From the NCBI GenBank assembly GCA_018664485.1, contig JABJOE010000007.1, forward strand, positions 132,353-196,352: a DNA stretch of 64,000 bases. The letters run 5' to 3'. Below the pieces are notes generated by a model. The model made no database searches and was not told the origin of the DNA. It was given only the letters and a program-made list of their open reading frames with translations. Shown in pieces: positions 2,570-55,526 of this stretch. This DNA is from Candidatus Uhrbacteria bacterium. GTDB lineage: Bacteria; Patescibacteriota; Patescibacteriia; UBA9934. The stretch's first letter is position 1. Each line of letters starts with the position of its first letter. The position numbers and the translations under genes were made by a program.

Positions 2570-5476
2570 CTATTTCTTTTTCGTCTTTGCTTTCGTTTTC
2601 TTGACTGGTGCCTTCCGAGCCGCAAATGCAAGCTTAAGCGCTTTCCCAGTATGCGTCTTATGCTTTGCGATATCTTTTGGCACACCGTTACCGACAACCA
2701 AGCCACCCTTCACACCACCTTCAGGCCCCATATCTATAATCCAATCAGATGACTGCATCACATCGGTATTATGCTCGATCACCAGAACCGTATTCCCCTT
2801 CTCAACTAAAGCATGCAACACTCCCAACAACTTACCAACATCATCAAAGTGAAGCCCCGTAGTTGGCTCATCTAAAATATACAATGTCTTTCCAGTTGCT
2901 CGACGAGAAAGTTCTGTTGAAAGCTTCACACGCTGCGCCTCACCACCCGAAAGAGTAGTTGCAGACTGTCCAAGTTTCAGATAACCAAGTCCAACTTCAT
3001 GAAGTACATTGAGCTTGTCATAAATGTTCGACCGATTAGCAAAGAACCGGCGAGCTTCATCAACCGTCATGTCCAGAACATCCGCAATATTCTTCTGACG
3101 ATAATGAATCTCCAACACCTCCTGCACATACCTACGACCTGAACACTCAGGACAATCCGAATACACATCAGGCATGAATTGCATCTCGATCCGAATTTGT
3201 CCGTCACCTGAACAGTTCTCACAACGTCCCCCACCCTTTACGTTGAAACTGAACTTTCCAGCGTCGTATCCACGAAGCTTAGCCTCGGGAACCTCTGTAA
3301 ACAAATCTCGAATAGCCGTGAACACACCAGTATATGTCGCCGGGTTCGATCGTGGAGTACGCCCAATTGGAGACTGGTCAACTGTTACAACTTTATCGAT
3401 GTTCTTAAGCCCCTTAATATCTTTATGCTGTCCGGGATATGCCTTGGCACGATAAAAGTGCTTTGAAAGCGCACGCCCCAAGATATCTAAAATCAATGTA
3501 GACTTTCCAGAACCTGATACACCGGCCACACAAACAAGCATTCCAAGTGGAATATCAACCGTAACGTTCTGGAGGTTATGCTCTTTAGCTCCAACGATTG
3601 TAATCTTCTTCTTATTTCCAGGGCGAGGCTTCTTCGGCGCAATTAGCACCTTCTGCCCTGTTAGATACTGCCCAGTCAGTGAATCTTTATTCTTCTTAAG
3701 CTGTGCTGGCGTTCCGTGAGCCACGATCTGTCCACCATATTCTCCAGCACCCGGACCGATATCAAATACATAGTCGGCAGCTTCGATCATCTCCTCATCA
3801 TGCTCTACAACCAAAACTGAGTTTCCAAGATCACGCAGACGTTTTACCGTTGCGATCAAGTGACCGTTGTCGCGTGGATGCAAACCGATAGAAGGTTCAT
3901 CTAAAACATAAATCACACCAGACAACGCCGCACCAAGCTGAGTTGAGAGCCGTACACGTTGAGACTCACCACCTGACAACGACATAGCGGCCCGATCCAA
4001 TGTGAGATATCCAAGTCCAACTTCCACAAGGTGCTTAACGCGGTCGTGAACCTCTCGAGCAACACGCTCAACAACTTTCTGCTCACCATCTGAAAGCATC
4101 TTTTGCCCCTTATTCCCTTTACTTCCCTTTTTTGCAGTCTCTAAAATCTCGTCAAAGAACGAAACAACGTCCTCAATAGGGCGCGACACAACGTCAGCAA
4201 TCGATGTACCACCGATCGTGAACATGAGTACCTCTTTACGCAGTCGTTTACCATTACAATCCGGACAAATCATCGAACGCATATAGCTCTCAAGCTCTTT
4301 GCGAACATATTCACTACTTGTCTCCTTATACTTAGTCTCAAGCATCCCAAGCACGCCAGGGAATGTCACTTCCTTCCCGGAAACGACGTAAACAGTGTCC
4401 CCTGTTCCATTGAGCAGAGTATCCATCTTCTCCGCACTAAAGGTATCCAACTCTTTATTCAAACTAAATTTCTTTTTCTTCGCAACCGCCTTTAACATCT
4501 CGATATAACTGTTCTGATTCCCAGCAATACGACTCCATGGCTTCACAGCACCCTGCTCGAGAGTAAGACGTTTGTTTGGAATAACCAGATCTGCTTCCAA
4601 AACCAATTTCATTCCAAGGCCAGTACAATCAGGACATGCACCATGTGGGGAGTTGAAAGAAAAAAGACGAGGTTCCGGCGTTGGGATCCGCATTCCACCC
4701 GGAAGATTGTATCCACGAACCAACTCAACCTCGTCACCAGTATCATCTCGATACATTAAAAGCTCATCGTTCCCCATATCAAGTGCCTGCTCGAGGATAA
4801 CGCGCATGCGCTCGATTGGAATATCTTGTCCGCCATCAAAACGCTTTGAAAGTACTTCAATTGTATGTTTCTTACTCTTCTGTTTTTTCATCGCAATAGC
4901 CTCATCCAAATCCATTGTAAGACCATCGTATCGAACTTCCTTAAACCCAGCGTTCTGTGCTGCAACCAAAACCTGATTATGCTCACCCTTCTGATCTTTG
5001 ACCATTGGCACAAACAGCATCACCTCACCTAACTTCACAGCAGCAATAATTTCCTCGGCCAAGTCATCGATAGAATTTTTCCGAATCAAGTCACCAGTCT
5101 CTGGGTTGTGAGGCTGTGCAACGCGAGAAAAAAGAACACGCAGATAATCATAAATCTCCGTCACAGTTCCCACGGTAGATCGCGGATTATGTGAAGAAGA
5201 CTTCTGGTCAATTGCAATTGTCGGTGAAAGTCCGACTATCTCGTCGACGTCAGGCTTATCTTGTAACTCAAGGAACTGTTTTGCGTAAGACGAAAGCGAC
5301 TCCATGTAGCGACGCTGTCCTTCGGCATAAATGGTGTCAAAGGCGAGAGACGACTTCCCTGACCCAGACAACCCCGTGAAGACTACGAGCTTATTTTTTG
5401 GAATGTCGCAGTTAATATTTTTCAAATTGTGAACCCGCGCACCGCGGATCGAAAGGGACTCATGTTGCACAAGCAA
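2570..5476 (-). CDS. uvrA: Excinuclease ABC subunit A (UvrA).
   Basis: 968 aa with two ABC ATPase modules: Walker A GLSGSGKSSLAFDTIYAEGQRRY and a second GVSGSGKSTL. Signature LSGGE appears twice. Zinc-finger Cys clusters (CPDCNG, CENCSGDG) are present. The start is the classic UvrA MLVQHESLSIRGARVHNLKNI. Confidence 0.97.
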   Translation of the reverse strand: MLVQHESLSIRGARVHNLKNINCDIPKNKLVVFTGLSGSGKSSLAFDTIYAEGQRRYMESLSSYAKQFLELQDKPDVDEIVGLSPTIAIDQKSSSHNPRSTVGTVTEIYDYLRVLFSRVAQPHNPETGDLIRKNSIDDLAEEIIAAVKLGEVMLFVPMVKDQKGEHNQVLVAAQNAGFKEVRYDGLTMDLDEAIAMKKQKSKKHTIEVLSKRFDGGQDIPIERMRVILEQALDMGNDELLMYRDDTGDEVELVRGYNLPGGMRIPTPEPRLFSFNSPHGACPDCTGLGMKLVLEADLVIPNKRLTLEQGAVKPWSRIAGNQNSYIEMLKAVAKKKKFSLNKELDTFSAEKMDTLLNGTGDTVYVVSGKEVTFPGVLGMLETKYKETSSEYVRKELESYMRSMICPDCNGKRLRKEVLMFTIGGTSIADVVSRPIEDVVSFFDEILETAKKGSKGNKGQKMLSDGEQKVVERVAREVHDRVKHLVEVGLGYLTLDRAAMSLSGGESQRVRLSTQLGAALSGVIYVLDEPSIGLHPRDNGHLIATVKRLRDLGNSVLVVEHDEEMIEAADYVFDIGPGAGEYGGQIVAHGTPAQLKKNKDSLTGQYLTGQKVLIAPKKPRPGNKKKITIVGAKEHNLQNVTVDIPLGMLVCVAGVSGSGKSTLILDILGRALSKHFYRAKAYPGQHKDIKGLKNIDKVVTVDQSPIGRTPRSNPATYTGVFTAIRDLFTEVPEAKLRGYDAGKFSFNVKGGGRCENCSGDGQIRIEMQFMPDVYSDCPECSGRRYVQEVLEIHYRQKNIADVLDMTVDEARRFFANRSNIYDKLNVLHEVGLGYLKLGQSATTLSGGEAQRVKLSTELSRRATGKTLYILDEPTTGLHFDDVGKLLGVLHALVEKGNTVLVIEHNTDVMQSSDWIIDMGPEGGVKGGLVVGNGVPKDIAKHKTHTGKALKLAFAARKAPVKKTKAKTKKK

Positions 5477-10468: not shown

Positions 10469-12475
10469 TTGACCGGCACTCGCATAGCGGCCGTGACAGG
10501 GCCCTATCTGAGGCGAATGAATAATATTCGAGCCGGATCCAAGTACTTGCAATGGCCCCCAACACATATGGTGCAAAAAAGACGTACCACGACGCATAGC
10601 AATTCACGCAATCGTCGTCATATTAAAAAAAGTTCAGGTAGCCCAGCAAAACCTCGAACAAGCAGCGTAGCTAAAGCTGGAACAACTAGTAAGGCGAAAG
10701 CTGCAACGAAGCGTCCAACTACCGCTCGCTCAACTTCTGCGCGTTCAAGCGGACGACCGCATACCAAGTCGAAAACAACAACGTACAAAACTCCATCAGG
10801 AGATTCTGTTCGAGTGATTGTACTTGGAGGCCTCGAAGAGGTCGGTCGTAACTGTACCCTCATTGAGTACAAGAACGACATTATTATAATCGACATGGGA
10901 CTCGAGTTCCCAGAAGAAAACATGCCTGGAGTTGATTACATCATCCCAGACATGACATACCTCAAGGGCAAAGAAAAGAATGTCCGAGGAGTTATTATCA
11001 CCCATGGTCACTACGACCATATCGGGGCAATCCCCCACACTATTCCAAACATCGGGAACCCACCAGTATATGCGCTTCCGATTGCAGCTGGAATTATCAA
11101 AAAACGTCAGACAGACTTTAAAACTCCTGCAATCAATCTTAAGCAAATTACAATTGCTGACGAGTTGCAGCTTGGTGTATTTAAAGTTCATTTCTTCCAC
11201 ATCAACCACAACATTCCAGACTCAGCCGGAATCGTGATCGAAACTCCTATGGGAACGATCTGTCACACCGGTGACTGGAAGTTTGATTACCACCCTGTTG
11301 GAACTGAACCGTCTGATTTCCACAAGATCGCGCGCGTTGGTGAAGCTGGAGTTGCCCTACTTATGGGAGACTCTACAAATGCCTGCATGCCAGGACACCA
11401 AACATCAGAGCGTGTTATTGGTGAGGAAATTAAGGGTATTCTGGAGCGTGCAAAGGGACGAGTAATCGTCGGAACCTTCGCGTCTCTACTTTCACGAGTG
11501 AAGCAGATTATTGAAATCTCAGAAACTCTAGGGCGTAAAGTTGCGCTAGACGGATACTCGATGAAAGCCAACGTTGAAATCGCTCGAGAACTTGGATTCA
11601 TCCACGTGAGCGACAAAACAATGATCACAACAGATCAAATTAAAAACTATTCTGACGACAAAGTTACAGTTATCTGTACTGGAGCTCAGGGAGAAAAACG
11701 TGCAGCACTTTCACGAATTGCAACCGATGAACATCGTTCAATCCGCATGAAGCCGACTGACACTGTAATCTTCTCAAGTTCTGTTATTCCAGGTAACGAA
11801 GCTTCTGTTCAGCGACTGAAAGATACTTTCTACCGCAAACGAGCAACTGTGATCCATAAAGACATCATGGACGTTCACGCAGGTGGACATGCAAAGCAAG
11901 AGGATATTAAGCTCATGCTTTCGCTCTTCAAACCTACGTACTACATGCCAATTGAGGGGAACCACTTCCTACTACGTGAAAACGCAGAGGTCGCCTACTC
12001 AATGGGGTGGAAAGAAAAGAACGTTCTCGTTGCCGACAATGGTCAGGTGATCACTCTGTCAAAAGACAAGCGATCCGGAGAGCCTATCGTCAACATGACA
12101 AAAGAAAAGGTACCTACAAATTACGTCTTCGTTGACGGACTAGGTGTAGGAGATGTGTCTGAAGTTGTGTTGCGAGATCGTCGAGCGATGTCAGAGGACG
12201 GAATGATCGTAGCGATTTTCCAGATCGAGAAAAAGACTGGAAAGCTAGTCGGTAATCCAGACCTTGTGAGTCGAGGATTCATTTACATGAAAGAAAACCG
12301 AAAGCTTATCGGTGCTGCAATGACTGTAGTCCGAAAAGCTGTGGCTGATAGCGATCCTAAATCCGCAGCAGATCCACATTACATCAAGGGAAATGTGCGA
12401 GATGCTCTTGGAAAATTCCTATACAAACAAACTGAGCGTCGACCTATGATCCTCCCTGTGATGATTGAGGTGTAG
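10469..12475 (+). CDS. rnj: Ribonuclease J (metallo-beta-lactamase / beta-CASP family) with an N-terminal basic low-complexity extension.
   Basis: Core from VRVIVLGGLEEVGRNCTLIEY...; MBL motif GVIITHGHYDHIGAIPH; beta-CASP and C-terminal domain conserved (...HAGGHAKQEDIKLM...). The first ~110 aa are Lys/Arg/Ser/Thr-rich. In-frame alternative starts at 10517 and 10573 are possible. Confidence 0.9.
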   Translation: MTGTRIAAVTGPYLRRMNNIRAGSKYLQWPPTHMVQKRRTTTHSNSRNRRHIKKSSGSPAKPRTSSVAKAGTTSKAKAATKRPTTARSTSARSSGRPHTKSKTTTYKTPSGDSVRVIVLGGLEEVGRNCTLIEYKNDIIIIDMGLEFPEENMPGVDYIIPDMTYLKGKEKNVRGVIITHGHYDHIGAIPHTIPNIGNPPVYALPIAAGIIKKRQTDFKTPAINLKQITIADELQLGVFKVHFFHINHNIPDSAGIVIETPMGTICHTGDWKFDYHPVGTEPSDFHKIARVGEAGVALLMGDSTNACMPGHQTSERVIGEEIKGILERAKGRVIVGTFASLLSRVKQIIEISETLGRKVALDGYSMKANVEIARELGFIHVSDKTMITTDQIKNYSDDKVTVICTGAQGEKRAALSRIATDEHRSIRMKPTDTVIFSSSVIPGNEASVQRLKDTFYRKRATVIHKDIMDVHAGGHAKQEDIKLMLSLFKPTYYMPIEGNHFLLRENAEVAYSMGWKEKNVLVADNGQVITLSKDKRSGEPIVNMTKEKVPTNYVFVDGLGVGDVSEVVLRDRRAMSEDGMIVAIFQIEKKTGKLVGNPDLVSRGFIYMKENRKLIGAAMTVVRKAVADSDPKSAADPHYIKGNVRDALGKFLYKQTERRPMILPVMIEV

Positions 12476-12684
12476 GGAGATCTCTTCAGCCAACCGTTGT
12501 CCCTACTTCATTTAACCCCTGTCTGGCTACAGCTCGCCCATGACTCGTTGCCTTAGATCCACTAAGACTCCTCGTCCTGAACGCGCTTCGCCAACGACAG
12601 TCGTTAAATGACTACGAAACATGGACGATCGGAGAGATCTGGACGAAAAGATCGAAATAACTAGGTATATCGCCTGCCAAACTA

Positions 12685-12705
12685 CCGCCGAAAGGCGGTT
12701 TTTTG
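12685..12705 (+). terminator. Rho-independent terminator about 210 nt downstream of the rnj stop.
   Basis: CCGCC (12685-12689) GAAA GGCGG (12694-12698), followed by T7. Confidence 0.6.
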
Positions 12706-12869
12706 GTATACTCTCTCCACGGAAAGAAATAGTCCCTAGGGCTGATCTCATTTGAGGCTAGTTCTAGGCGCGGGGGAAACGACAAGGAGCCGTACTCAAG
12801 TGTACGGTGACGAGTCGTGGGGCCCCGCAACACAGAAATAGCCCAAATGAATAAGTCCTAGAAAGATAT

Positions 12870-13850
12870 ATGCGAGTACTTACTGGAATACAGCCAACAA
12901 ACTTTCTTCACATTGGAAACCTCTTTGGTGCGCTTCGGCCAGCCATCGATCTTCAACGTGAAAATGATCTCTTCATGATGATCGCCGACTATCATGCGAT
13001 TACAGCAGAGCATGATCCAGTCAAACTTCATGACAACATCCTCTTCACTGCAGCGTCCTACATTGCAGCTGGAATTGACCCTACAAAGACAGTTCTCTTT
13101 CAGCAATCTCAAATCCCAGCACATACTGAATTGGGATGGGTTCTTCAAACCGTTGCGCGAATGGGTGAGGCGAAACGCATGACTCAGTTTAAAGATAAAT
13201 CTGGATCCAACGAAGATAAGGTGTCTGTCGGGCTCTTCACCTACCCTACCCTCATGGCTGCCGACATTCTTCTCTATGATGCAGAGAGCGTTCCAGTTGG
13301 AGATGACCAGAAACAACATATTGAATTTACACGAGACTTAGCACAACGTTTTAACCGTGATTTTGGTGACACTTTCGTCGTTCCAGAACCTATGATTCGA
13401 AAACATGGTGCTCGACTGAAGTCACTTACAGAGCCTGAAAAGAAAATGAGCAAGAGTGCACCAAGTGCTAAGAGCTACATATCTCTTACTGACGATCCAG
13501 ATATCATCGCAAAAAAAGTACGGAGTGCTACAACGGATTCAGAACCCGGCATGACCTTCTCAAAAGATCGACCAGGTCTTCACAACCTCCTTACAATTTT
13601 AAGCTTAATCGAAGACGCACCTGGCGACGAACTCGCTAGCCGTTACGATGGCATGGGCACAAAAGCACTAAAAGATGACCTTACAGAACGTCTCGTAGAG
13701 CATCTTCGACCAATTTCCAAAGAGGCCCAAAATCTCGTAGACAATAAAGACGAGCTAATCCGAGTGATTGCGAACGGAACTGCAGCGGCCGCGAAAGTAG
13801 CAAATGCCAAGATCGCAGAGGTCAGAGAGCGAATTGGAGTCGCCTTGTAG
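12870..13850 (+). CDS. trpS: Tryptophanyl-tRNA synthetase.
   Basis: Class I aaRS. HIGH-type motif (TGIQPTNFLHIGNLFGA), KMSKS motif (KMSKSAPS), length 326 aa, and TrpRS-specific conserved blocks (GLFTYPTLMAADILLY, VPVGDDQKQHIEFTRDLAQRFN). Confidence 0.93.
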   Translation: MRVLTGIQPTNFLHIGNLFGALRPAIDLQRENDLFMMIADYHAITAEHDPVKLHDNILFTAASYIAAGIDPTKTVLFQQSQIPAHTELGWVLQTVARMGEAKRMTQFKDKSGSNEDKVSVGLFTYPTLMAADILLYDAESVPVGDDQKQHIEFTRDLAQRFNRDFGDTFVVPEPMIRKHGARLKSLTEPEKKMSKSAPSAKSYISLTDDPDIIAKKVRSATTDSEPGMTFSKDRPGLHNLLTILSLIEDAPGDELASRYDGMGTKALKDDLTERLVEHLRPISKEAQNLVDNKDELIRVIANGTAAAAKVANAKIAEVRERIGVAL

Positions 13851-15201: not shown

Positions 15202-15657
15202 GTTCGGGATACGAGACAGTCGCCCTGCGCCCAGCGCTCAGGGAGGAAAGTCCGAACACCGCGTAGGCAGCAATGTTTACGGATACAGAACGTCGCTAAC
15301 GGCGACCGGGATATAGCATTATCAAACGAGGAATGAATTCGTTCTTTCCTCGAGCCATGAATTTAGGTTCACGGCCACACCAATGTAAACCTAGGGAAAG
15401 TGCCACAGAGACAATACTAGTTTGGCTCCGGTCAAACAAAAGGTGAAAAGTGATTTGAGGTTTGAGATCAGATGATCTAGGTAACTGTTACCAACAAGCC
15501 ACATTTCTCGCCCCACGGTGACGTGGTGGCGTGGTAAACCCGTTCTGGTGCAAGAGCAAGTTTGGTAGCTCGCTCGACCGGCATAGCAATATGTCGGCTA
15601 GATAGATGACTGTCGCCTCGCAAGAGGATACAGAATTCGGCTTACAAGTCTCCCGAC
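15202..15657 (+). ncRNA. rnpB: RNase P RNA (bacterial type A).
   Basis: Universally conserved P4 strands are present: 5' GGGAGGAAAGTCCGAACACC (15241-15260) and 3' ACAGAATTCGGCTTACAAG (about 15630-15648). The 5' AGACAGTCGCC and 3' TAGATAGATGACTGTCGCC segments match E. coli M1 RNA positions. It is a GC-rich island with a promoter upstream and a terminator downstream. Confidence 0.85.
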
Positions 15658-15668
15658 GAACATCAAGA

Positions 15669-40469: not shown

Positions 40470-40497
40470 AAACCGTCTCCTAAACTTGATCATATAT

Positions 40498-41376
40498 ATG
40501 CCATCTGTACGAGACATACCCTCTATTACTGACAAAAAGCTTCATTCACTGGAGAAAAAAGCGAACTTGATTCGCCAAGATGTTTTAAAAATGCTCCGCG
40601 AAGCCGGCTCTGGTCATAGTGCCGGACCACTCGGACTTGCCGATATTTTTACATCTTTATATTTTCACGTACTCAAACATGACCCTAAGAAACCAGGCTG
40701 GAGCGATCGTGACCGTCTATTGCTTTCATGTGGCCATGTAGTTCCTATTCGTTACGCTGCAATGGCGCATGCCGGATACTTCCCAAAGAAAGATCTGATG
40801 ACATTGCGAAAGCTTGGATCCAAACTTCAGGGACATCCGGAAGTGACACAGATGAAATCGCTCGAAAATACGTCTGGACCACTCGGCGACGGTGGACCTC
40901 AGTCCTGTGGAATGGCTTACGTTGCAAAAGCAGACAAACTTCCTTGGCACACATACTGTGTACTTTCTGAGGGAGACTTGGAAGCAGGAATTACCTGGGA
41001 GGCTGCGATGTTCGCCGGTAAAAATAATCTCCACAATCTCACATGGATAATTGATCGTAACAATATTCAAATCGACGGCTACACAGAGGACATCATGCCC
41101 CTTGAGCCATTGGCAGATAAGTTTGCAGCATTTAATTGGACCGTCATTGAAATAGATGGTCACAACATAATGCAATTCGTTGACGCATGTCGTTACGCAC
41201 AGACAATCTGGGAGAACCCGGTCGTAATTATCGCCCACACAGTCCCAGGAAAAGGAGTAGACTTCATGGAGTTTGAACCAGGGTGGCACGGAAAGCCTCC
41301 GGGAAGCGATGAGCTACGTGATGCATTACGTGAATTACGAACACTCGGAGGAACTATTGAAAGTGAATCAGAATAA
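40498..41376 (+). CDS. Transketolase, N-terminal (thiamine-diphosphate-binding) subunit of a split enzyme.
   Basis: GHSAGPLGLADIFTSLYF...DRDRLLLSCGHVVPIRYAAM...GPLGDGGPQSCGMAY...NLTWIIDRNNIQIDG. The ORF-track start at 40486 is TTG; the ATG at 40498 is the likely start. Confidence 0.9.
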   Translation: MPSVRDIPSITDKKLHSLEKKANLIRQDVLKMLREAGSGHSAGPLGLADIFTSLYFHVLKHDPKKPGWSDRDRLLLSCGHVVPIRYAAMAHAGYFPKKDLMTLRKLGSKLQGHPEVTQMKSLENTSGPLGDGGPQSCGMAYVAKADKLPWHTYCVLSEGDLEAGITWEAAMFAGKNNLHNLTWIIDRNNIQIDGYTEDIMPLEPLADKFAAFNWTVIEIDGHNIMQFVDACRYAQTIWENPVVIIAHTVPGKGVDFMEFEPGWHGKPPGSDELRDALRELRTLGGTIESESE

Positions 41377-41377
41377 T

Positions 41378-42280
41378 ATGAAAAATGTAAAAACAATTTG
41401 GATCTGGGTTAGCTCCATAATCATCATCCTATTAGCTGCAATCATACTTGTCTCTCTACGCGGAGCGAGTACATCATCAATGGATCCCGTATATATAGAT
41501 TACGGCTACGATGAGGTATTCATGGAATCAGAATTCGCAGAGTCTGCTGCATCATCGCTGTACCTTGCCGATGGTAGCCTTGATAGGAGTTACGATGACG
41601 ATGTTTCTGAACAAAATTATATTATTAAAACTGGAAGTATTGAGATGCGAGTGGATTCCGTTGCAGATGCCATGGAACAGCTCGAGACTACAGCGGCAAC
41701 ATACGCTGGCTACATCCAATACAGTTATATTGATCGATCCGATGAATTCGTTGACGGGTTCGCAACCGTTCGTGTGGACGCTTCAGTATTCGCTGCTGCC
41801 ATGGACGATATTCAGGGACTTGCAACCGCAATTCACTACTCACAAGTTTCAAGCGACGATGTTACGGAACAGGTTTTCGACATCCAAGCACGACTCTCAA
41901 ACGCTCAAGCAGAAGAAGAGAGCTATCTAGAAGTCCTTAACATCGCAACAAGTGTAGAAGATATCCTAGACGTCAGACGCTACCTCTCACAGGTGCGTGA
42001 AACGATAGAACGTTACGAGGCACAACTTGAATACTACGAAACAGCTACGTCTCTTGCCACGATCAGCGTTGAGATGACTGAAGAGACCTCTATCTTGTTA
42101 GACTCAGATACTTTTAGACCTAGTCAGTCCGTAGTAGAAGCAGCACAGACAGTTGTGTCACTAGCACAATCTCTAGTGATCGCAGTGATATGGATCATCA
42201 TCGTTGGAGGAGGAATCCTCATCCCTATCGCTATCTTCTACTGGCTTGCAGGTAAGGTATATAGACGACTGAAAAAATAG
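41378..42280 (+). CDS. DUF4349-like membrane protein (N-terminal TM, acidic and coiled-coil middle, C-terminal TM pair), inserted between the two transketolase halves.
   Basis: The likely start at ATG 41378 (MKNVKTIWIWVSSIIIILLAAIILV) lies 2 nt after the tktN stop. The C-terminal TM is VIAVIWIIIVGGGILIPIAIFYWLAG. The gene ends 2 nt before tktC. I recall this architecture as DUF4349, with moderate certainty. Confidence 0.5.
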   Translation: MKNVKTIWIWVSSIIIILLAAIILVSLRGASTSSMDPVYIDYGYDEVFMESEFAESAASSLYLADGSLDRSYDDDVSEQNYIIKTGSIEMRVDSVADAMEQLETTAATYAGYIQYSYIDRSDEFVDGFATVRVDASVFAAAMDDIQGLATAIHYSQVSSDDVTEQVFDIQARLSNAQAEEESYLEVLNIATSVEDILDVRRYLSQVRETIERYEAQLEYYETATSLATISVEMTEETSILLDSDTFRPSQSVVEAAQTVVSLAQSLVIAVIWIIIVGGGILIPIAIFYWLAGKVYRRLKK

Positions 42281-42282
42281 AT

Positions 42283-43272
42283 ATGAAAAAGGAGCAACCA
42301 AAACTAGCAAGAAGCTGGAAAAATCCAAGTCGTCTTAAGCTAATCCCTACCCGTAATGGTTTCGGTGAGGGATTAGTCGAAGCTGGAAAGGCTGACAAGA
42401 ACGTAATGGTGATCTCTGCTGACCTTACAGACTCAACAAGGGCAAGCTACTTCAAAGATGCCTTCCCTGATCGGTTTGTTCAGTTCGGAGTTGCAGAGCA
42501 AGCGATGGCAGCAACAGCGGCGGGTATGGCTCTCGCCGGAAAGACGGTTTTCATCGCAAGCTACGCCGCATTTTCACCTGGACGAAACTGGGAACAGATT
42601 CGAACAACTGCTTGTCTACAAAAAGCTAACGTAAAAATAGCTGGAGCGCATGCTGGGATCTCCGTCGGTCCAGATGGTGCAACTCACCAGATGGTTGAAG
42701 ACATTGCAATTACGCGTGTACTCCCTGAAATGAAAGTACTAGTACCATGTGACTCAATCGAGACTCGTAAAGCGACGATTGCTGCAGCAAAAATGAAAGG
42801 ACCGGTATATGTCCGCTTTGCAAGATCATCAAGCCCTGTCTTTACAACAAACGCAACTCCGTTTGCCGTTGGTAAAGCGCAGGTCTTCCGTGACGGATCC
42901 GACCTTGCCATCATCGCCTGTGGACCTCTTGTATATGAAGCCCTGATGGCGGCAGAGGAACTTTCAAAGCTCGGTATCGAAGCTCGAGTTATCAATAACG
43001 TGAGTGTAAAGCCGATGGACGAGAAGACAATCGTGCAAGCTGCAAAAGACTGTGGTGCGATCGTCACAATAGAGGAAGCTCAAGCGGCTGCCGGAATGGG
43101 TTCAGCGGTATGTGAAATAACATCGCAACACTTCCCCGTCCCAGTAGAACGTATGGGCATGCAAGACCGCTTCGGTGAATCCGGAGAGCCCAACGAGCTA
43201 CTAGAGCACTTCGGATTAACTGCTCCGTATATTGTAAAAGCAGCCAAACGAATAATGAAAAAGAAGAAATAG
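42283..43272 (+). CDS. Transketolase, C-terminal (pyrimidine-binding plus C-terminal domain) subunit.
   Basis: NGFGEGLVEAGKADKNVMVISADLTDSTRASYFKDAFPDRFVQFGVAEQAMAATAAGMALAGKTVFIASYAAF... Confidence 0.9.
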   Translation: MKKEQPKLARSWKNPSRLKLIPTRNGFGEGLVEAGKADKNVMVISADLTDSTRASYFKDAFPDRFVQFGVAEQAMAATAAGMALAGKTVFIASYAAFSPGRNWEQIRTTACLQKANVKIAGAHAGISVGPDGATHQMVEDIAITRVLPEMKVLVPCDSIETRKATIAAAKMKGPVYVRFARSSSPVFTTNATPFAVGKAQVFRDGSDLAIIACGPLVYEALMAAEELSKLGIEARVINNVSVKPMDEKTIVQAAKDCGAIVTIEEAQAAAGMGSAVCEITSQHFPVPVERMGMQDRFGESGEPNELLEHFGLTAPYIVKAAKRIMKKKK

Positions 43273-43341
43273 TCATAGGCTCAATTTTGACAGAAAAGGG
43301 GTAAAACAAGGCTTTTTACCTCTTTTTTTGTTCATTGGCAC

Positions 43342-43370
43342 TTGACAAAAGTGCTATTTTGTGCTACTAT
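43342..43370 (+). promoter_or_regulatory. Promoter (TTGACA-N17-TACTAT) at the head of the cassette-like array.
   Basis: TTGACA 43342-43347, a 17-nt spacer, TACTAT 43365-43370. Confidence 0.5.
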
Positions 43371-43376
43371 GTGAGG

Positions 43377-43498
43377 GTAGTTAAATTTCAAGTCTCTTTA
43401 CAATTTAGTGAATGTGAGCCCACGTTGATATTTTGGGTGATGCCTCTAGGCTCACTCTACCCCCAGCTATAGCCTATGAGTTATAGCTATTTTTATTT
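43377..43498 (+). ncRNA. Candidate small structured RNA or attenuator leader of about 120 nt (promoter to intrinsic terminator).
   Basis: Closing helix GGGTAG / CTACCC. Internal hairpin GTGAGCC...GGCTCAC. Terminal hairpin AGCTATA (43465-43471) / TATAGCT (43483-43489), followed by ATTTTTATTT. Confidence 0.4.
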
Positions 43499-43585
43499 GG
43501 GAAAAAGATGAAAGGACAGGCCTTTTCATCTCGGTCTCAAACCGAGTGTTCACACAGCTCTCGTTAGCACGAGAACACCCAATAC

Positions 43586-43684
43586 ATTCTCGGTAATCAC
43601 TGAGTGAGGGTGGCAAGCTGTACAAGATGTCCTGGCGCCTATGTCATGGACAGCTATCCCGACCATGGGATAGGAGAACATACA
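43586..43684 (+). repeat. Array repeat copy A (M2-type module only), immediately upstream of ORF1.
   Basis: ...GAGGGTGGCAAGCTGTACAAGATGTCCTGGCGCCTATGTCATGGACAGCTATCCCGACCATGGGATAGGAGAACATACA-ATG is homologous to copies B, C and D. The SD (AGGAG) is embedded in GGGATAG, which can pair with the upstream CTATCCC. Confidence 0.6.
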
Positions 43685-44047
43685 ATGGAAGAAAAGCTTG
43701 CAACCGATCAGAAGCGCCTCTCAAATGAGTTCCTGCTTGAATTCTTGAGTGCGACTAACAATGACGAGCGCTGCAAAGCGCTTATCAAGGAGTCATACCG
43801 ACTCTGGCCGAACAGGGATGGAAATCTCTACGATGGAGCCGACCACCCGTACTGTGTCTGGGAGAACAATGCCACAACTGCCGTTTCACGCGAGGAGAAT
43901 GCAAAGATCTGTCTCCAACACGCGAAATATGCAGACAGCAACTGCCCGTTCGCAGATGGCGGAGTCCTCTACGACTTTGTCACAACTAGTGTACTTCTGT
44001 GGGAGCCAGAAAAAGCCCGCATCAAAGAAGTTTACGAGTCACTGTAG
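43685..44047 (+). CDS. Cassette ORF1: hypothetical 120-aa soluble protein.
   Basis: Start ATG 43685, with GGAG 8 nt upstream. The ORF-track start at 43604 would read through the repeat. No recognised family. Confidence 0.5.
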   Translation: MEEKLATDQKRLSNEFLLEFLSATNNDERCKALIKESYRLWPNRDGNLYDGADHPYCVWENNATTAVSREENAKICLQHAKYADSNCPFADGGVLYDFVTTSVLLWEPEKARIKEVYESL

Positions 44048-44058
44048 TTCTACTATCT

Positions 44059-44269
44059 CCCCAAGCAACTCGCTTGGGGCTCCGCAGAGCACATCACACA
44101 GTGGTGGATTCCGCAGAGCAGGAATACTTCCCGCTTCAATACAGCCCTCGACCAACGAGGACATCTAATACATTCCCGGAGACTACCGGGTGAAGATGGC
44201 AGTCTGTGTAATATATCCTGACATTTGTGTCATGGATAACTATCCCTTGGTACGGATAGAAGTATACAT
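44059..44269 (+). repeat. Array repeat copy B (modules M1+M2) between ORF1 and ORF2.
   Basis: M1 contains hairpin CCCCAAGC-AACT-GCTTGGGG (44059-44079) and a direct repeat CCGCAGAGC x2. M2 contains CCTCG-ACCAA-CGAGG, CCGG-AGACTA-CCGG, the GGATAACTATCC palindrome, and CTATCC-CTTGGTAC-GGATAG just before the ATG. Confidence 0.65.
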
Positions 44270-44656
44270 ATGAGCGCGATCCTCTTTCTCCTGCTTTCAA
44301 GTCTCCTAGCACACGCAGACGACATCGTCACTACAACAAGGGCCGAAACGGTTGTCGGTTATAGTGACGAGACTCTGATCTCCATAACTTCCGAAGTTGG
44401 AAGAGAGTGCTACGCCGCACGAAAGTGGCGACACTCAACTCTCGTATGCAGCGACATAGCAGTCTACACAATCCTTACGCACTCAGGTACATCATTGAAA
44501 AGTGTCAGTGTACCCATGTCGGCAACGACCTGGAATACTGCTCCGGTACCTGGTAGCCGAATCGAAATTAGGTGCGAAGTAACAGTAGATGAGTACAACA
44601 ACACAAACGGGTACCCGCTATTCATCCGGCGCCTTGATGAGTGCTGGGCGAACTAG
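44270..44656 (+). CDS. Cassette ORF2: hypothetical secreted 128-aa protein (signal peptide, 6 Cys).
   Basis: MSAILFLLLSSLLAHADD signal peptide. No recognised family. Confidence 0.5.
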   Translation: MSAILFLLLSSLLAHADDIVTTTRAETVVGYSDETLISITSEVGRECYAARKWRHSTLVCSDIAVYTILTHSGTSLKSVSVPMSATTWNTAPVPGSRIEIRCEVTVDEYNNTNGYPLFIRRLDECWAN

Positions 44657-44751
44657 TCAAACCCTTCTCCCCCTGGTACTAACCGGGGGCTCGATATAGA
44701 GCATGACAGAATCGTGCCTTGCGTCGAGCTAGATCATATCTGGCCTACATG

Positions 44752-44876
44752 CAGCCCTCGACCAACGAGGACTTCCAATAATCCGGATTTCCCGGTGAGG
44801 ATGACAAGCTGTACTAGATATCCTGCCCCTCGGGTCATGGATAGCTATCCCTTGGTACGGATAGAAGTAATAAGAG
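44752..44876 (+). repeat. Array repeat copy C (M2 module); the preceding M1 is replaced by a different GC hairpin (44669-44689).
   Basis: GCCCTCGACCAACGAGGACTTCCAATAATCCGGATTTCCCGGTGAGGATGACAAGCTGTACTAGATATCCTGCCCCTCGGGTCATGGATAGCTATCCCTTGGTACGGATAGAAGTAATAAGAG-ATG is about 95% identical to copy D across M2. Confidence 0.65.
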
Positions 44877-45404
44877 ATGCCAGAACATCAGAAAACTGAG
44901 GCTATGCTAAAAATGATGGCCAGCCGGACGGCAAAGGAGCTTCCGCCCCTTCCAGATGGATCCAAAATCATTCTGGAAGACGCACCTTCCGGACTCGTTC
45001 TAGCCAGAAACAGTCAGCGAGGAGGAATGTTTAGAAGGTGGAACGATGACAGAGGTCTTTTTCGCCGATTACTAGATCTGCTTCTTGGGTACAGTAGGAA
45101 AGGAGTACCCGTTCGACTGTTCGACCTGACCTGCTCAAACCAGTTCGACCTAGTTGAGTCAGAGCACGTCATAAAGGAAGCGTACATGGAGCTTCGGTGC
45201 ATCATCCAAACAAAGCCCAAACAGGTCTACCGAGAACTGTTTGGTAAAGCTGCACCTCCTCACTGGTCAAATAAGGAGGAGATGTGTATGCATAGACTAA
45301 ATGATGCATTCAAAATCAATCAACGGAACCGCACTGATCTCTCTGGGGTCTTCGCGATCCGGTATGCGTGCGAATGCGCCATAAAAGCAAGCTACCCACT
45401 CTAG
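44877..45404 (+). CDS. Cassette ORF3: hypothetical 175-aa protein.
   Basis: ATG directly follows repeat C. No recognised family. Confidence 0.5.
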   Translation: MPEHQKTEAMLKMMASRTAKELPPLPDGSKIILEDAPSGLVLARNSQRGGMFRRWNDDRGLFRRLLDLLLGYSRKGVPVRLFDLTCSNQFDLVESEHVIKEAYMELRCIIQTKPKQVYRELFGKAAPPHWSNKEEMCMHRLNDAFKINQRNRTDLSGVFAIRYACECAIKASYPL

Positions 45405-45410
45405 TACCTT

Positions 45411-45610
45411 CCCCAAGCTCTAAGCTTGGGGCTCCGCAGAGCACATCACATCGTGGTGGATTCCGCAGAGCAGGATAATATCCCGCTTAAATACAGCCCT
45501 CGACCAACGAGGACTTCCAATAATCCGGATTTCCCGGTGAGGATGACAAGCTGTACTAGATATCCTGCCTCTCGGGTCATGGATAGCTATCCGGAAGGAT
45601 AGTGGTAGTC
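45411..45610 (+). repeat. Array repeat copy D (M1+M2) between ORF3 and ORF4.
   Basis: CCCCAAGCT-CTA-AGCTTGGGG (45411-45431), then CTCCGCAGAGC...TTCCGCAGAGC, then M2, ending with the GGATAGCTATCC palindrome and CTATCC-GGAA-GGATAG. Confidence 0.65.
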
Positions 45611-45886
45611 ATGAAAATTCAAACAAAAACAGCTAAAGCGTTCCTTGAAGATAAAGTTGGCACAGCCACCATCCAGCTAATGTGGCTCCTGTTCACAGTC
45701 GAATGGGCATGGATGTTCTCTGGTGTAGCAGAGTACATGATCGCAGCACCAATCGGTGGAACGATCGTAACCTTTATTATCGCCGCGGCAAGTGAAAGCC
45801 GCGAGCAAGCAGAGGCCAGACAAGTGTCGCTAATGTTCCTCGCCTCTCCGCTTGCGTTCGCTATCTACGTCGTCCCTATGTTTTGA
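45611..45886 (+). CDS. Cassette ORF4: hypothetical 91-aa membrane protein (2-3 TM).
   Basis: Start ATG 45611 (MKIQTKT...). The ORF-track GTG at 45602 lies inside the repeat. An intrinsic terminator follows at 45913-45962. Confidence 0.5.
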   Translation: MKIQTKTAKAFLEDKVGTATIQLMWLLFTVEWAWMFSGVAEYMIAAPIGGTIVTFIIAAASESREQAEARQVSLMFLASPLAFAIYVVPMF

Positions 45887-45912
45887 TGAGCTTCACACCT
45901 CTTCAATTCCCT

Positions 45913-45962
45913 CCCCCGCGCCATCTGGTATAGCGGGGGTTTGAGTTTGGGCTTTATTTTTT
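45913..45962 (+). terminator. Rho-independent terminator ending the cassette-like array.
   Basis: CCCCCGC (45913-45919) / GCGGGGG (45933-45939) with a 13-nt loop, followed by TTTGAGTTTGGGCTTTATTTTTT. Confidence 0.55.
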
Positions 45963-46032
45963 ACCAATAAACTGCGTGAGCTCAGCAAATTAAGGTTGAT
46001 TTCATTACCTATAGCTGTTTGCGTGAACTGCG

Positions 46033-46758
46033 TTGTTAGCGTACGATACGCCTATTATGCGACTGAATAAATATATTGCTCAATCAGGATACTGTTCACG
46101 CCGAAAGGCTGATCAGCTAATTGAAGACGGTGTGGTGACCATCAATGGGAATCCATCAGAGGTAGGTCAAAAAGTGGCCCACAATGATGTTGTTGCAGTG
46201 AACGGTCAAAAAATAGAAATAAACGAAAAGGAAGTTTATTTAGCTTTTCACAAACCATTTGGCGTAATCTGTACCGCTGACGAAAAAGCCGACAATACTA
46301 TTTACGACTACCTTCCTACTGATCAACGACTTCTGTATGTTGGTAGACTCGACGTTGAATCAAGTGGACTCCTGATCATGACAAGCGACGGGAATGTTGC
46401 AAACGCGATTGCGCACGGAAGCGGAAGTCACGAAAAAGAATACATCGTAACTGTCGACAAACCGATCAATCGAGCATTCGCTAAAAAAATGCGTGACGGT
46501 GTAATCATCGAAGGAGAAAAAACAAAACCAGCTCTTATCAAAAAAATGCGAGATGACCGATTCTCTCTCATCATCACACAAGGACGCAACCGACAGGTCA
46601 GAAAAATGTGTGAAGCTTTTGGATACAAAGTAAAAACACTTCGACGCGTTCGCGTTATGAACGTAAAGCTAGGAGCGCTTGGCGAAGGAAACTACCGGCC
46701 ACTTACAAAAAATGAACGCCGAGGACTTTTGGCATCGCTAGGAATGAAACAAGCTTAA
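46033..46758 (+). CDS. Pseudouridine synthase, RsuA/RluB family (S4 domain plus catalytic domain).
   Basis: S4 RNA-binding N-terminus (RLNKYIAQSGYCSRRKADQLIEDGVVTING). Catalytic-Asp motif region (LLYVGRLDVESSGLLIMTSDG). C-terminal ...RQVRKMCEAFGY. Confidence 0.85.
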   Translation: MLAYDTPIMRLNKYIAQSGYCSRRKADQLIEDGVVTINGNPSEVGQKVAHNDVVAVNGQKIEINEKEVYLAFHKPFGVICTADEKADNTIYDYLPTDQRLLYVGRLDVESSGLLIMTSDGNVANAIAHGSGSHEKEYIVTVDKPINRAFAKKMRDGVIIEGEKTKPALIKKMRDDRFSLIITQGRNRQVRKMCEAFGYKVKTLRRVRVMNVKLGALGEGNYRPLTKNERRGLLASLGMKQA

Positions 46759-55011: not shown

Positions 55012-55235
55012 AAAATTTTATTGTTGTGCATAACTTTCACGTTTTTGTTTTTTTTATTGCACAAACAACGATATACTTTAAACAGAAGCATTTTTGTTTC
55101 TTCGTTGTATGGTGCACGCACGTGCGCATGATGCAGTGAAAAAAATTTGCGCGACGATCAAAAAAAACTTTGCTGTCGACAAAGTGATCGACGTGACATA
55201 TGACATTTCAATTGTCACTAGAAAGGGTACAAAAT

Positions 55236-55526
55236 ATGCCTGCTAAAAAACGAAAGCCAGCTAAAAAGAAAGTAGCTAAGCGAAAGCCTGCGAAACGCAA
55301 AGTTGCGAAACGTAAGCCAGCTAAGCGAAAGGTTGCTAAGCGTAAGCCTGCAAAACGAAAGACTGCAGCAAAGCGTAAACCAGCTAAAAAGAAAGTAGCT
55401 AAGCGAAAGCCTGCGAAACGCAAAGTTGCGAAACGTAAGCCAGCTAAGCGAAAGGTTGCTAAGCGTAAGCCTGCAAAACGAAAGACTGCAGCAAAGCGTA
55501 AACCAGCTAAACGTAAAAAGCGTTAA
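55236..55526 (+). CDS. Histone H1-like / Hc2-like basic repeat protein (AKRKPAKRKV repeats, 96 aa).
   Basis: MPAKKRKPAKKKVAKRKPAKRKVAKRK... is almost pure Lys/Arg/Ala/Pro. RBS-like AAAGGG lies upstream. Start ATG 55236 is preferred over the ORF-track start at 55200. Confidence 0.7.
   Translation: MPAKKRKPAKKKVAKRKPAKRKVAKRKPAKRKVAKRKPAKRKTAAKRKPAKKKVAKRKPAKRKVAKRKPAKRKVAKRKPAKRKTAAKRKPAKRKKR
55258..55503 (+). repeat. Perfect 123-bp x 2 tandem duplication inside the histone-like gene.
   Basis: 55258-55380 is 100% identical to 55381-55503, verified base by base. Each unit encodes 41 aa and itself contains roughly 30-nt sub-repeats. Confidence 0.9.

Follow-up and report, generated by a model that had tools for sequence, protein, structure and literature searches.

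The RNase III sites between the T7 early genes and the three PyrR-binding attenuators of the Bacillus pyr operon are repeated intercistronic RNA elements. They act on each cistron of one transcript, the genes are related or functionally linked, and the trans factors are known. In T4-type phages, promoter-early stem-loop (PeSL) cassettes, made of a promoter and a stem-loop, lie between ORFans in hyperplastic regions, where they recombine and shuffle genes (Arbiol et al. 2010, PMC2839356; Comeau et al. 2014, PMC4122927). The rAID-1 arrays, which are orphan-immunity arrays of Bacteroidales, are defined by a 5' XerD-like recombinase and have skewed GC and repetitive intergenic sequences (Ross et al. 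2019, doi 10.1101/471110). Putative mobile promoters are homologous upstream regions, 50-100 nt or more in length and at least 80% identical, that precede non-homologous genes of one genome (Matus-Garcia et al. 2012, PMC3488235). Here we analyzed an array of four small genes, each directly preceded by a copy of a structured repeat, in 64,000 nt of DNA from a Candidatus Uhrbacteria bacterium (the window, to which coordinates refer unless they are given for a relative's locus or a contig). The array is on the plus strand and forms an island of ~2.6 kb between the housekeeping genes tktC and rluB.

The region from 43292 to 45962 contains, in this order, the terminator of tktC, a promoter (P1), a leader, four units that each consist of a repeat and an open reading frame (ORF), and a GC hairpin followed by a U-rich tail. 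With moderate confidence, we interpret the 2.6-kb segment as a foreign island of four real, species-unique small genes that share a structured intercistronic module and occupy a hypervariable gap between tktC and rluB. An earlier, first-pass annotation had already recognized the overall design, with unrelated ORFan cargo, a homologous structured repeat before each gene, one promoter and one end signal, and our analysis agrees with it on these points. It compared the array with integrons and with clusters of attC sites lacking integron-integrases (CALINs), and named cis-regulatory leaders or RNA processing sites of a polycistron as an alternative. This alternative appears to fit best, given the covarying helices, the plus-strand G-U pairs and the absence of internal promoters. 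Overall, the array seems closer to the regulatory cassettes that shuffle in T4-type phages than to an integron.

The structured repeats and their genes

The repeat is modular. A module of ~90 nt (M1) is followed by a module of ~130 nt (M2), the whole spacer measures ~200 nt, and one copy lies directly before each ORF. An nhmmer profile built from the four copies recovered exactly the four that had been proposed, with E-values of 1e-49 to 1e-68 (matches at 43499-43688, 44054-44274, 44665-44879 and 45408-45614). The invariant 17-mer GTCATGGAYARCTATCC occurs four times in the window against 0.05 expected, and the copies are spaced by 586, 605-610 and 742 nt. Copy A (43548-43684), the first in the array, has M2 only (a three-way junction and two hairpins), with neither an M1 nor a preceding ORF. 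It is the most diverged copy, and is found both by nhmmer and by the covariance model R1 (143 bits). In copy B, M1 (44048-44140) comprises a GC hairpin directly after the stop codon (44059-44079), a long 15-pair hairpin and a short hairpin, and M2, also found by nhmmer and the covariance model, extends from 44141 to 44269. The M1 of copy C (44657-44750), which the first-pass annotation took for a different GC hairpin, is in fact a diverged M1, 67% identical to that of B, in which the same three helices are kept by compensatory changes; its M2 (44751-44876) has a 3' tail of the B type. Copy D joins a B-type M1 (45405-45492, identified by nhmmer and segment identity) to a C-type M2 (45493-45610), in which the last hairpin has a GGAA tetraloop in place of an 8-nt loop. 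Across M2, C and D are identical at 98 of 99 positions, B is ~78% identical and A ~70%, the same ranking as first reported.

We searched for further copies in several ways. None was found in the other 61 kb of the window (nhmmer and a repeat scan). In the relatives' loci, 169 loci fetched through TktC (1.3 Mb and 0.6 Mb), neither nhmmer nor R1 found a copy; such a covariance-model search had been recommended at the outset. An exact scan for the pattern GTCATGGAYARCTATCC-N3-12-GGATAG returned no match in the GTDB species genomes and none in the JGI metagenome contigs, a collection evidently without this species. Three pattern scans of IMG/VR gave chance seed matches only, as confirmed by nhmmer, and a blastn search with the whole array against 50,697 phage records gave no match. 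As a proxy, we also used a small ORF called inside copy C, and its protein cluster has two members, both from this locus. The first-pass annotation had named several outcomes as arguments against a cassette or a novel element, and none of them applies in full. One, a dispersed miniature inverted-repeat transposable element (MITE) unlinked to ORF starts, is not what we see within the DNA searched. Another paired a lack of covariation with an element that occurs only here; covariation is present (see below), but in the window, the relatives and the collections scanned the element does occur only here.

We derived a consensus fold with RNAalifold from four copies for M2 and three for M1, all of one species. 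The repeat folds into 10 helices, three in M1 and seven in M2. M1 has the GC hairpin 6-12 nt after the stop codon, then the 15-pair interrupted hairpin and then the short hairpin. Two CCGCAGAGC stretches, previously read as a direct repeat, turned out to be the flanks of the single long 15-pair hairpin. The description of the GC hairpin as lying right after the stop and lacking a U-tract was correct, and the U-tract is missing from every post-stop hairpin but the last, at the end of the array. In M2, where three conserved stems had been noticed, we found seven helices: a closing helix surrounds a three-way junction, formed with a CCUCG hairpin and an extended arm that has a conserved AAUA/GUGA internal loop, and two hairpins follow. 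Invariant unpaired stretches (AAUA and GUGARGAUGRCA) lie between the covarying helices, and loop lengths vary between copies while the stems are kept. In all copies, the start codon is located 10-15 nt past the last M2 hairpin, within an unpaired A/U-rich tail.

The counts of base pairs support this fold. M2 has 34 pairs, 8 of which changed on both sides, and 97.8% of its cells are paired compared with 33-45% in slid controls. None of 500 shuffles reached the observed number of pairs changed on both sides, the percentage of paired cells or the covariation score, and 24 of 500 reached the observed value for further pair types. For M1, 6 of the 26 pairs are compensatory and 96% of cells are paired (32-46% when slid). 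Compensatory changes, for which the first-pass annotation had suggested a covariation test, are thus present in 14 of the 60 pairs of the two modules, and most of them are supplied by copy A. G-U cells outnumber A-C cells by 16 to 2 in M1 and M2 together, and therefore the plus strand seems to be the one that folds, which fits RNA better than DNA. We conclude that the repeats probably act as plus-strand RNA. Taken singly, the M2 copies fold modestly more stably than their shuffles (z = -1.4 to -1.9). The Rfam 15 covariance models gave no match to the module at the gathering threshold, and nothing above noise at E-values up to 10 in 43200-46100. The module is an RNA motif new to Rfam, so far known from one species only.

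A scan of the array for sigma-70-like promoters on the plus strand returned P1 alone, and none inside repeat copies A-D. P1 (TTGACA-N17-TACTAT, 43342-43370) is the promoter first annotated at this position and is a strong one; it matches the consensus at 10 of 12 positions and has a TG before the -10 element (extended -10). A few other functions were considered for the repeat and dropped. A promoter within M2 was rejected because no -35/-10 pair is conserved, and hammerhead, twister and other known ribozymes because they gave no Rfam signal. The conserved ATG of M2 sits in the 3' arm of helix 6, and its pairing there accounts fully for its conservation. We reject an upstream ORF or leader peptide (MDSYP...) common to the copies: a 5-nt indel breaks the frame, the stop position differs per copy, and the peptide is conserved no better than its nucleotides. 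We also dropped the masking of a Shine-Dalgarno sequence by the last hairpin: because most genes of this genome have no Shine-Dalgarno sequence, this hairpin is unlikely to hide a ribosome-binding site.

The four ORFs encode 120 aa (ORF1, 43685-44047), 128 aa (ORF2, 44270-44656), 175 aa (ORF3, 44877-45404) and 91 aa (ORF4, 45611-45886), all on the plus strand. For ORF1, gene callers prefer a start at 43646, inside M2, which would yield 133 aa. To score coding potential we used a codon model trained on the long genes of the window and compared all six frames. For all four ORFs the annotated frame was the best of six and the other five frames were all negative, with 0.20, 0.05, 0.05 and 0.30 bits per codon for ORF1 to ORF4 (host genes, 0.28 +/- 0.08). 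All four look like real coding genes, and the possibility raised earlier that they are fragments of one frameshifted gene does not apply. Their GC content is 0.49-0.51. The GC content at third codon positions (GC3) is 0.50-0.57, compared with 0.36-0.43 in the neighboring host genes; the first-pass annotation had already found them richer in GC than the flanking housekeeping genes. Because the GC3 of the ORFs exceeds that of their neighbors, we consider the island compositionally foreign.

As the first-pass annotation had stated, the ORFs are unrelated to each other and to known families. No similarity was detected among the four at the DNA or protein level, and none of them has a match in Pfam, PHROGs or PADLOC. 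ORF1, ORF2 and ORF3 matched only themselves among 5.8 billion protein clusters, and for ORF4 a full HMMER scan against 1.84 billion representatives found no protein other than ORF4 itself. All four are ORFans unique to this species. ORF2 has a hydrophobic, signal-peptide-like N-terminus ending in AHA-DD and ORF4 has two hydrophobic segments, in line with the signal peptide and the membrane protein first reported. Structure prediction had been advised for the ORFs, and we ran AlphaFold2 in single-sequence mode on ORF1 and ORF3; the models are too poor to use (mean confidence scores, pLDDT, of 52 and 46). In the NCBI annotation of Candidatus Uhrbacteria bacterium, ORF3 and its neighbors are hypothetical proteins (HON52_03610 to HON52_03620).

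Exchange between copies and the tktC-rluB locus

The nearest partner of a copy changes along the repeat. In M1, B and D agree at 50 of 57 positions and C is divergent; in M2 it is C and D that are nearly identical, with B well behind. In the last 26 columns, B and C agree at 21 positions and D has the deletion that creates its GGAA tetraloop. The breakpoints of this mosaic are located at a 21-nt stretch common to B, C and D (CAGCCCUCGACCAACGAGGAC) and also just past CUAUCC. Because the closest partner switches between M1, M2 and the 3' tail, the alignment indicates that the copies have recombined with each other. For comparison within the species, we used a JGI contig of 986 kb and nine contigs that could be retrieved from other samples; they contain the same locus and are all 99.96-100% identical. 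Six of the nine span at least two cassettes, and these have the same cassettes in the same order. Only one single-nucleotide polymorphism (SNP) occurs within the repeats among the contigs of this species. It is a C-to-T change at 44828 (position 3241 of contig L001), the sole difference between C and D in M2, and it makes the M2 of copy C identical to that of copy D. This SNP fits gene conversion; an assembly collapse of near-identical repeats is also possible.

Judging from the relatives' loci, the gap between tktC and rluB is a hypervariable hotspot, with a length that ranges from ~80 nt to 3.2 kb. It measures ~80-150 nt in many loci (L011, L014, L020, L022, L024, L031 and L140), and 0.4-3.2 kb in other relatives, where it holds unrelated cargo with different repeats or none. 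A syntenic comparison had been proposed in the first-pass annotation, and gap content does vary between related genomes. The intrinsic terminator of tktC (43292-43328, plus strand, found by a terminator scan) aligns with that of the closest relative, L010 (85% TktC identity), and is the left edge of the conserved backbone. L010 keeps both this terminator and P1 (CTTGACAAAA...TGCT..ATGT.AGGG is conserved), and the homology ends at ~43395, ~25 nt past the likely transcription start. Behind P1, L010 has a 62%-GC gene of the sigma-70 family (4552-5283; regions 2, 3 and 4).

By eye, the sigma factor of L010 looks similar to FliA. One would not expect a genome of the candidate phyla radiation (CPR) to encode an alternative sigma factor with a foreign composition, and mis-binning of the metagenome-assembled genome is possible.

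Other relatives carry yet other cargo. In L137, the gap holds a TrmB-type regulator, a receiver-like protein and small paralogues. In L015 (74% TktC identity), positions 10966-13345 contain an opposite-strand array in which four unrelated ORFans follow one another. A TTGACA-N17-TATATT/TATTCT promoter with its 5' untranslated region (UTR), and also a terminator hairpin, are repeated for every one of them. The repeated promoter matches the consensus at 11 of 12 positions in three copies. These repeats are unrelated in sequence to those of the window and are confined to that array, except for a 38-nt terminator match in the gap of L145. The inserted DNA is richer in GC than the host in the window, L010, L015 and L019.

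Several features recall the PeSL cassettes. A GC stem-loop lies between the stop codon and the next start in copies B, C and D, and also after ORF4, and the site is hyperplastic and upstream of ORFans. PeSL copies recombine, giving mosaics, indels and mini-circles, and swap unrelated genes; in the assemblies compared here, the copies of the window's array are mosaic in three segments and show one homogenizing SNP. The L015 array matches the full definition, with its repeated sigma-70 promoter and repeated terminator. In contrast, copies A-D of the window have no plus-strand promoter-like site, and their module of ~200 nt has ten covarying helices instead of a promoter and one stem-loop. The array is on a bacterial chromosome and not in a phage. 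As with putative mobile promoters, closely similar sequences (98% identity for C and D, ~78-80% for B and C) precede unrelated genes; unlike them, the module has no promoter, forms a structured 5'/3' UTR and has all its copies adjacent in one operon. The rAID-1 arrays share the small genes, the skewed GC and the repetitive intergenic sequences, but their XerD-like recombinase is absent here and our cargo has no similarity to known immunity families (Pfam, PADLOC). The recurrence of homologous structured RNA elements between cistrons, known here from sequence alone, is reminiscent of the T7 and pyr elements.

We propose that the array was acquired from an unsampled donor, possibly a phage, and that it would be transcribed as one unit from the resident promoter P1. 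The post-stop GC hairpin of M1 may form a barrier at the 3' end of the cistron before it, or terminate that cistron leakily. M2 may provide a standard insulated translation-start region for any ORF that follows, and perhaps also a processing site or a regulator-binding site. As the repeats appear to have recombined with each other, they would therefore also serve as ~100-nt homology tracts, by which genes could be exchanged, homogenized, gained and lost through homologous recombination without a dedicated integrase, as happens with the PeSL cassettes of T4-type phages.

A number of points weigh against this interpretation. Co-transcription, processing and the translational roles of the module are all deduced from the DNA. 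The covariation appears to reflect few independent events (four copies, three for M1, one species), and the fold was derived from the same sequences that were used to test the pairing. The window's module is without the promoter that defines PeSLs. The foreign GC is even across the island, which suggests that the array arrived whole and that the shuffling took place in an unknown donor. Turnover of cassettes between strains was not seen in the six contigs that span at least two cassettes, and our search for copies within this genome covered 64 kb of 986 kb, so that more copies may exist.

The genomes of CPR bacteria are very small and streamlined, and the ways in which these bacteria gain and express new genes are poorly understood. 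On our interpretation, the tktC-rluB gap of these marine Uhrbacteria would be a defined chromosomal hotspot where unrelated lineage-specific genes arrive with standardized regulatory spacers. Parallels are the regulatory cassettes that move in T4-type phages and the repetitive sequences between the genes of rAID-1 arrays, but no recombinase was found here. Should the spacer be a portable module that supports the expression of whichever ORF follows it, it would correspond in nature to the insulator and translation-start parts built by engineers, and could serve as a marker for ORFan islands in uncultured bacteria.

Other explanations for the repeats

The alternative that survives best, which we consider doubtful but possible, is a trans-regulated leader or a self-processing RNA. 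M2 would then control or cleave the RNA ahead of each cistron, as a riboswitch, a small ribozyme or a binding site for a protein, and would be repeated since all four genes answer one signal; recombination between copies would be incidental. The conserved three-way junction, with its invariant unpaired stretches between covarying helices, the stems kept while loop lengths vary and the fixed position directly before each start codon are all as expected for such an element, which would form a new class since no Rfam family matches. However, classes of ligand sensors and ribozymes are usually wider in their phylogenetic distribution, and this motif is absent from all relatives and collections searched. 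We also identified no alternative fold that could act as an expression platform, and the modest z-scores of the single-copy M2 folds count against this explanation.

An integron-like or other site-specific cassette system, the analogy drawn in the first-pass annotation, is in our view improbable. The repeats would be recombination sites (perhaps as folded single-stranded DNA), the recombinase would be encoded elsewhere in the genome, and P1 would be the cassette promoter, Pc. As in integrons and CALINs, one resident upstream promoter is followed by co-directional, promoterless, unrelated ORFs, mostly of unknown function, with one repeat each. P1 is kept in L010 before different cargo, the cargo at the locus differs between species, and the mosaic breakpoints are sharp, at the 21-nt stretch common to B, C and D. 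The specific parts of an integron are lacking. We found no tyrosine recombinase, IntI included, in the 64-kb window (the HxLRH and LGH..Y motifs are absent in all frames, and the best E-value of a tblastn search with E. coli XerD was 2.6), and no integrase Pfam match among the genes called in the 10 kb to each side of the array. The four repeats and the end hairpin contain no RYYYAAC/GTTRRRY cores (R'/R''). The first-pass annotation had likewise reported neither an integrase nor such cores and had advised a search for recombinases, and both negatives are borne out within the DNA covered. An attC site is a single imperfect palindrome of 57-141 nt, whereas the repeat has about ten separate helices over ~200 nt and contains many G-U pairs, which are tolerated better in RNA than in DNA. 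Moreover, the repeat family is private to the array, the relatives' cargo at this locus has different repeats or none, and the cassettes are invariant between strains, with a constant content in the six contigs of the species. With no recombinase, core site, attC-like hairpin or strain-level cassette variation in the DNA covered, the analogy is not supported.

It is also a long shot that ultra-small (CPR) bacteria capture or express genes with a device not known before, of which the module is the working part. We include under this two variants: a recombination site at which an unrecognized recombinase, or a mechanism of the retro type, places foreign ORFs downstream of a resident promoter, and a new self-processing RNA that cuts the polycistron into standard units that can each be translated. 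If the module belonged to such a device, the opposite-strand PeSL-like array of L015 would be a second variant of the same capture hotspot.

Insertion of a selfish short repeat between the genes of a pre-existing operon is very unlikely. The modular build, in which M1 occurs with or without M2, has parallels in BOX or enterobacterial repetitive intergenic consensus (ERIC) elements, and GC hairpins directly after stop codons are found in repetitive extragenic palindromic (REP) elements. A MITE-, REP- or BOX-like repeat would not be expected to have four copies in 2.6 kb and zero in the remaining 61 kb, nor to end at a fixed distance from the start codon in every copy; terminal inverted repeats and target duplications were not seen at the repeats, and the protein cluster of the ORF inside copy C has no member from elsewhere. 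Least likely of all is a tandem duplication of a gene with its upstream region, after which the spacers were conserved and the ORFs either diverged to an extreme degree or arose de novo: the spacing is regular and the ORFs have no homologues anywhere searched, but they retain no residual DNA or protein similarity next to spacers that are 70-98% identical, differ in length and type (soluble, secreted, membrane), and each give a clear coding signal in a single frame.

Leader, end hairpin and other features of the window

Downstream of P1, a structured leader specific to the array extends from 43371 to 43547 on the plus strand. Its hairpins are one formed by GUGAGCC/GGCUCAC, one at 43465-43497 that is terminator-like and has a U-run, and another two at 43507-43530 and 43531-43547, and the fold of 43371-43700 has a z-score of -3.5. 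The first-pass annotation had described the leader as structured, which it is; in addition, it holds the terminator-like hairpin, and it measures ~175 nt. In the segment 43377-43497, the hairpin and U-run at 43465-43497 follow P1 after ~90 nt and have no Rfam match. Transcription from P1 could stop early here and yield a short RNA (~120 nt), or it could be attenuated ahead of the array.

After ORF4, the array ends with a GC hairpin (CCCCCGCG...GCGGGGG, 45913-45945) of the same type as the first M1 hairpin, with a 5' arm of the form CUCCCC..., followed by a U-rich tail up to 45962 on the plus strand. It had been called a canonical intrinsic terminator. The GC hairpin is there, but the U-tract behind it is interrupted, and the terminator scan missed the hairpin because its loop exceeds 8 nt. 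The segment 45913-45962 is the probable terminator of the array, plausible and not canonical. We considered inverted repeats at 43464-43479 and 46002-46017 as ends of an element and dropped them, since a match at 13 of 16 positions is at chance level.

Upstream of the array, the transketolase is split (40486-43272) into N- and C-terminal genes with a gene for a DUF4349 membrane protein between them (41273-42280). The latter overlaps the ORF of the N-terminal half by ~100 nt, and this three-gene order recurs in many relatives.

Besides that of the array, the window has a single further family of repeats, which is coding and rich in lysine. The small ORF at 55200-55526 consists almost entirely of KRKPAKRKVA-type repeats, rich in lysine, proline and alanine, and may encode a histone-H1-like DNA-binding protein.

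The RNase P RNA at 15204-15660 is of class A (162 bits). It measures 457 nt against a model of 367 positions, with two large insertions (79 and 54 nt) and one 34-position segment deleted.

Most genes of the window have no Shine-Dalgarno sequence, and in several a TATAAT-like hexamer precedes the start codon by 0-10 nt (gene starts at, for instance, 15724, 23109, 37790 and 58640), which suggests widespread leaderless or Shine-Dalgarno-independent translation in this genome. In the relatives, rluB likewise has TGCTACACT 6 nt before its ATG.

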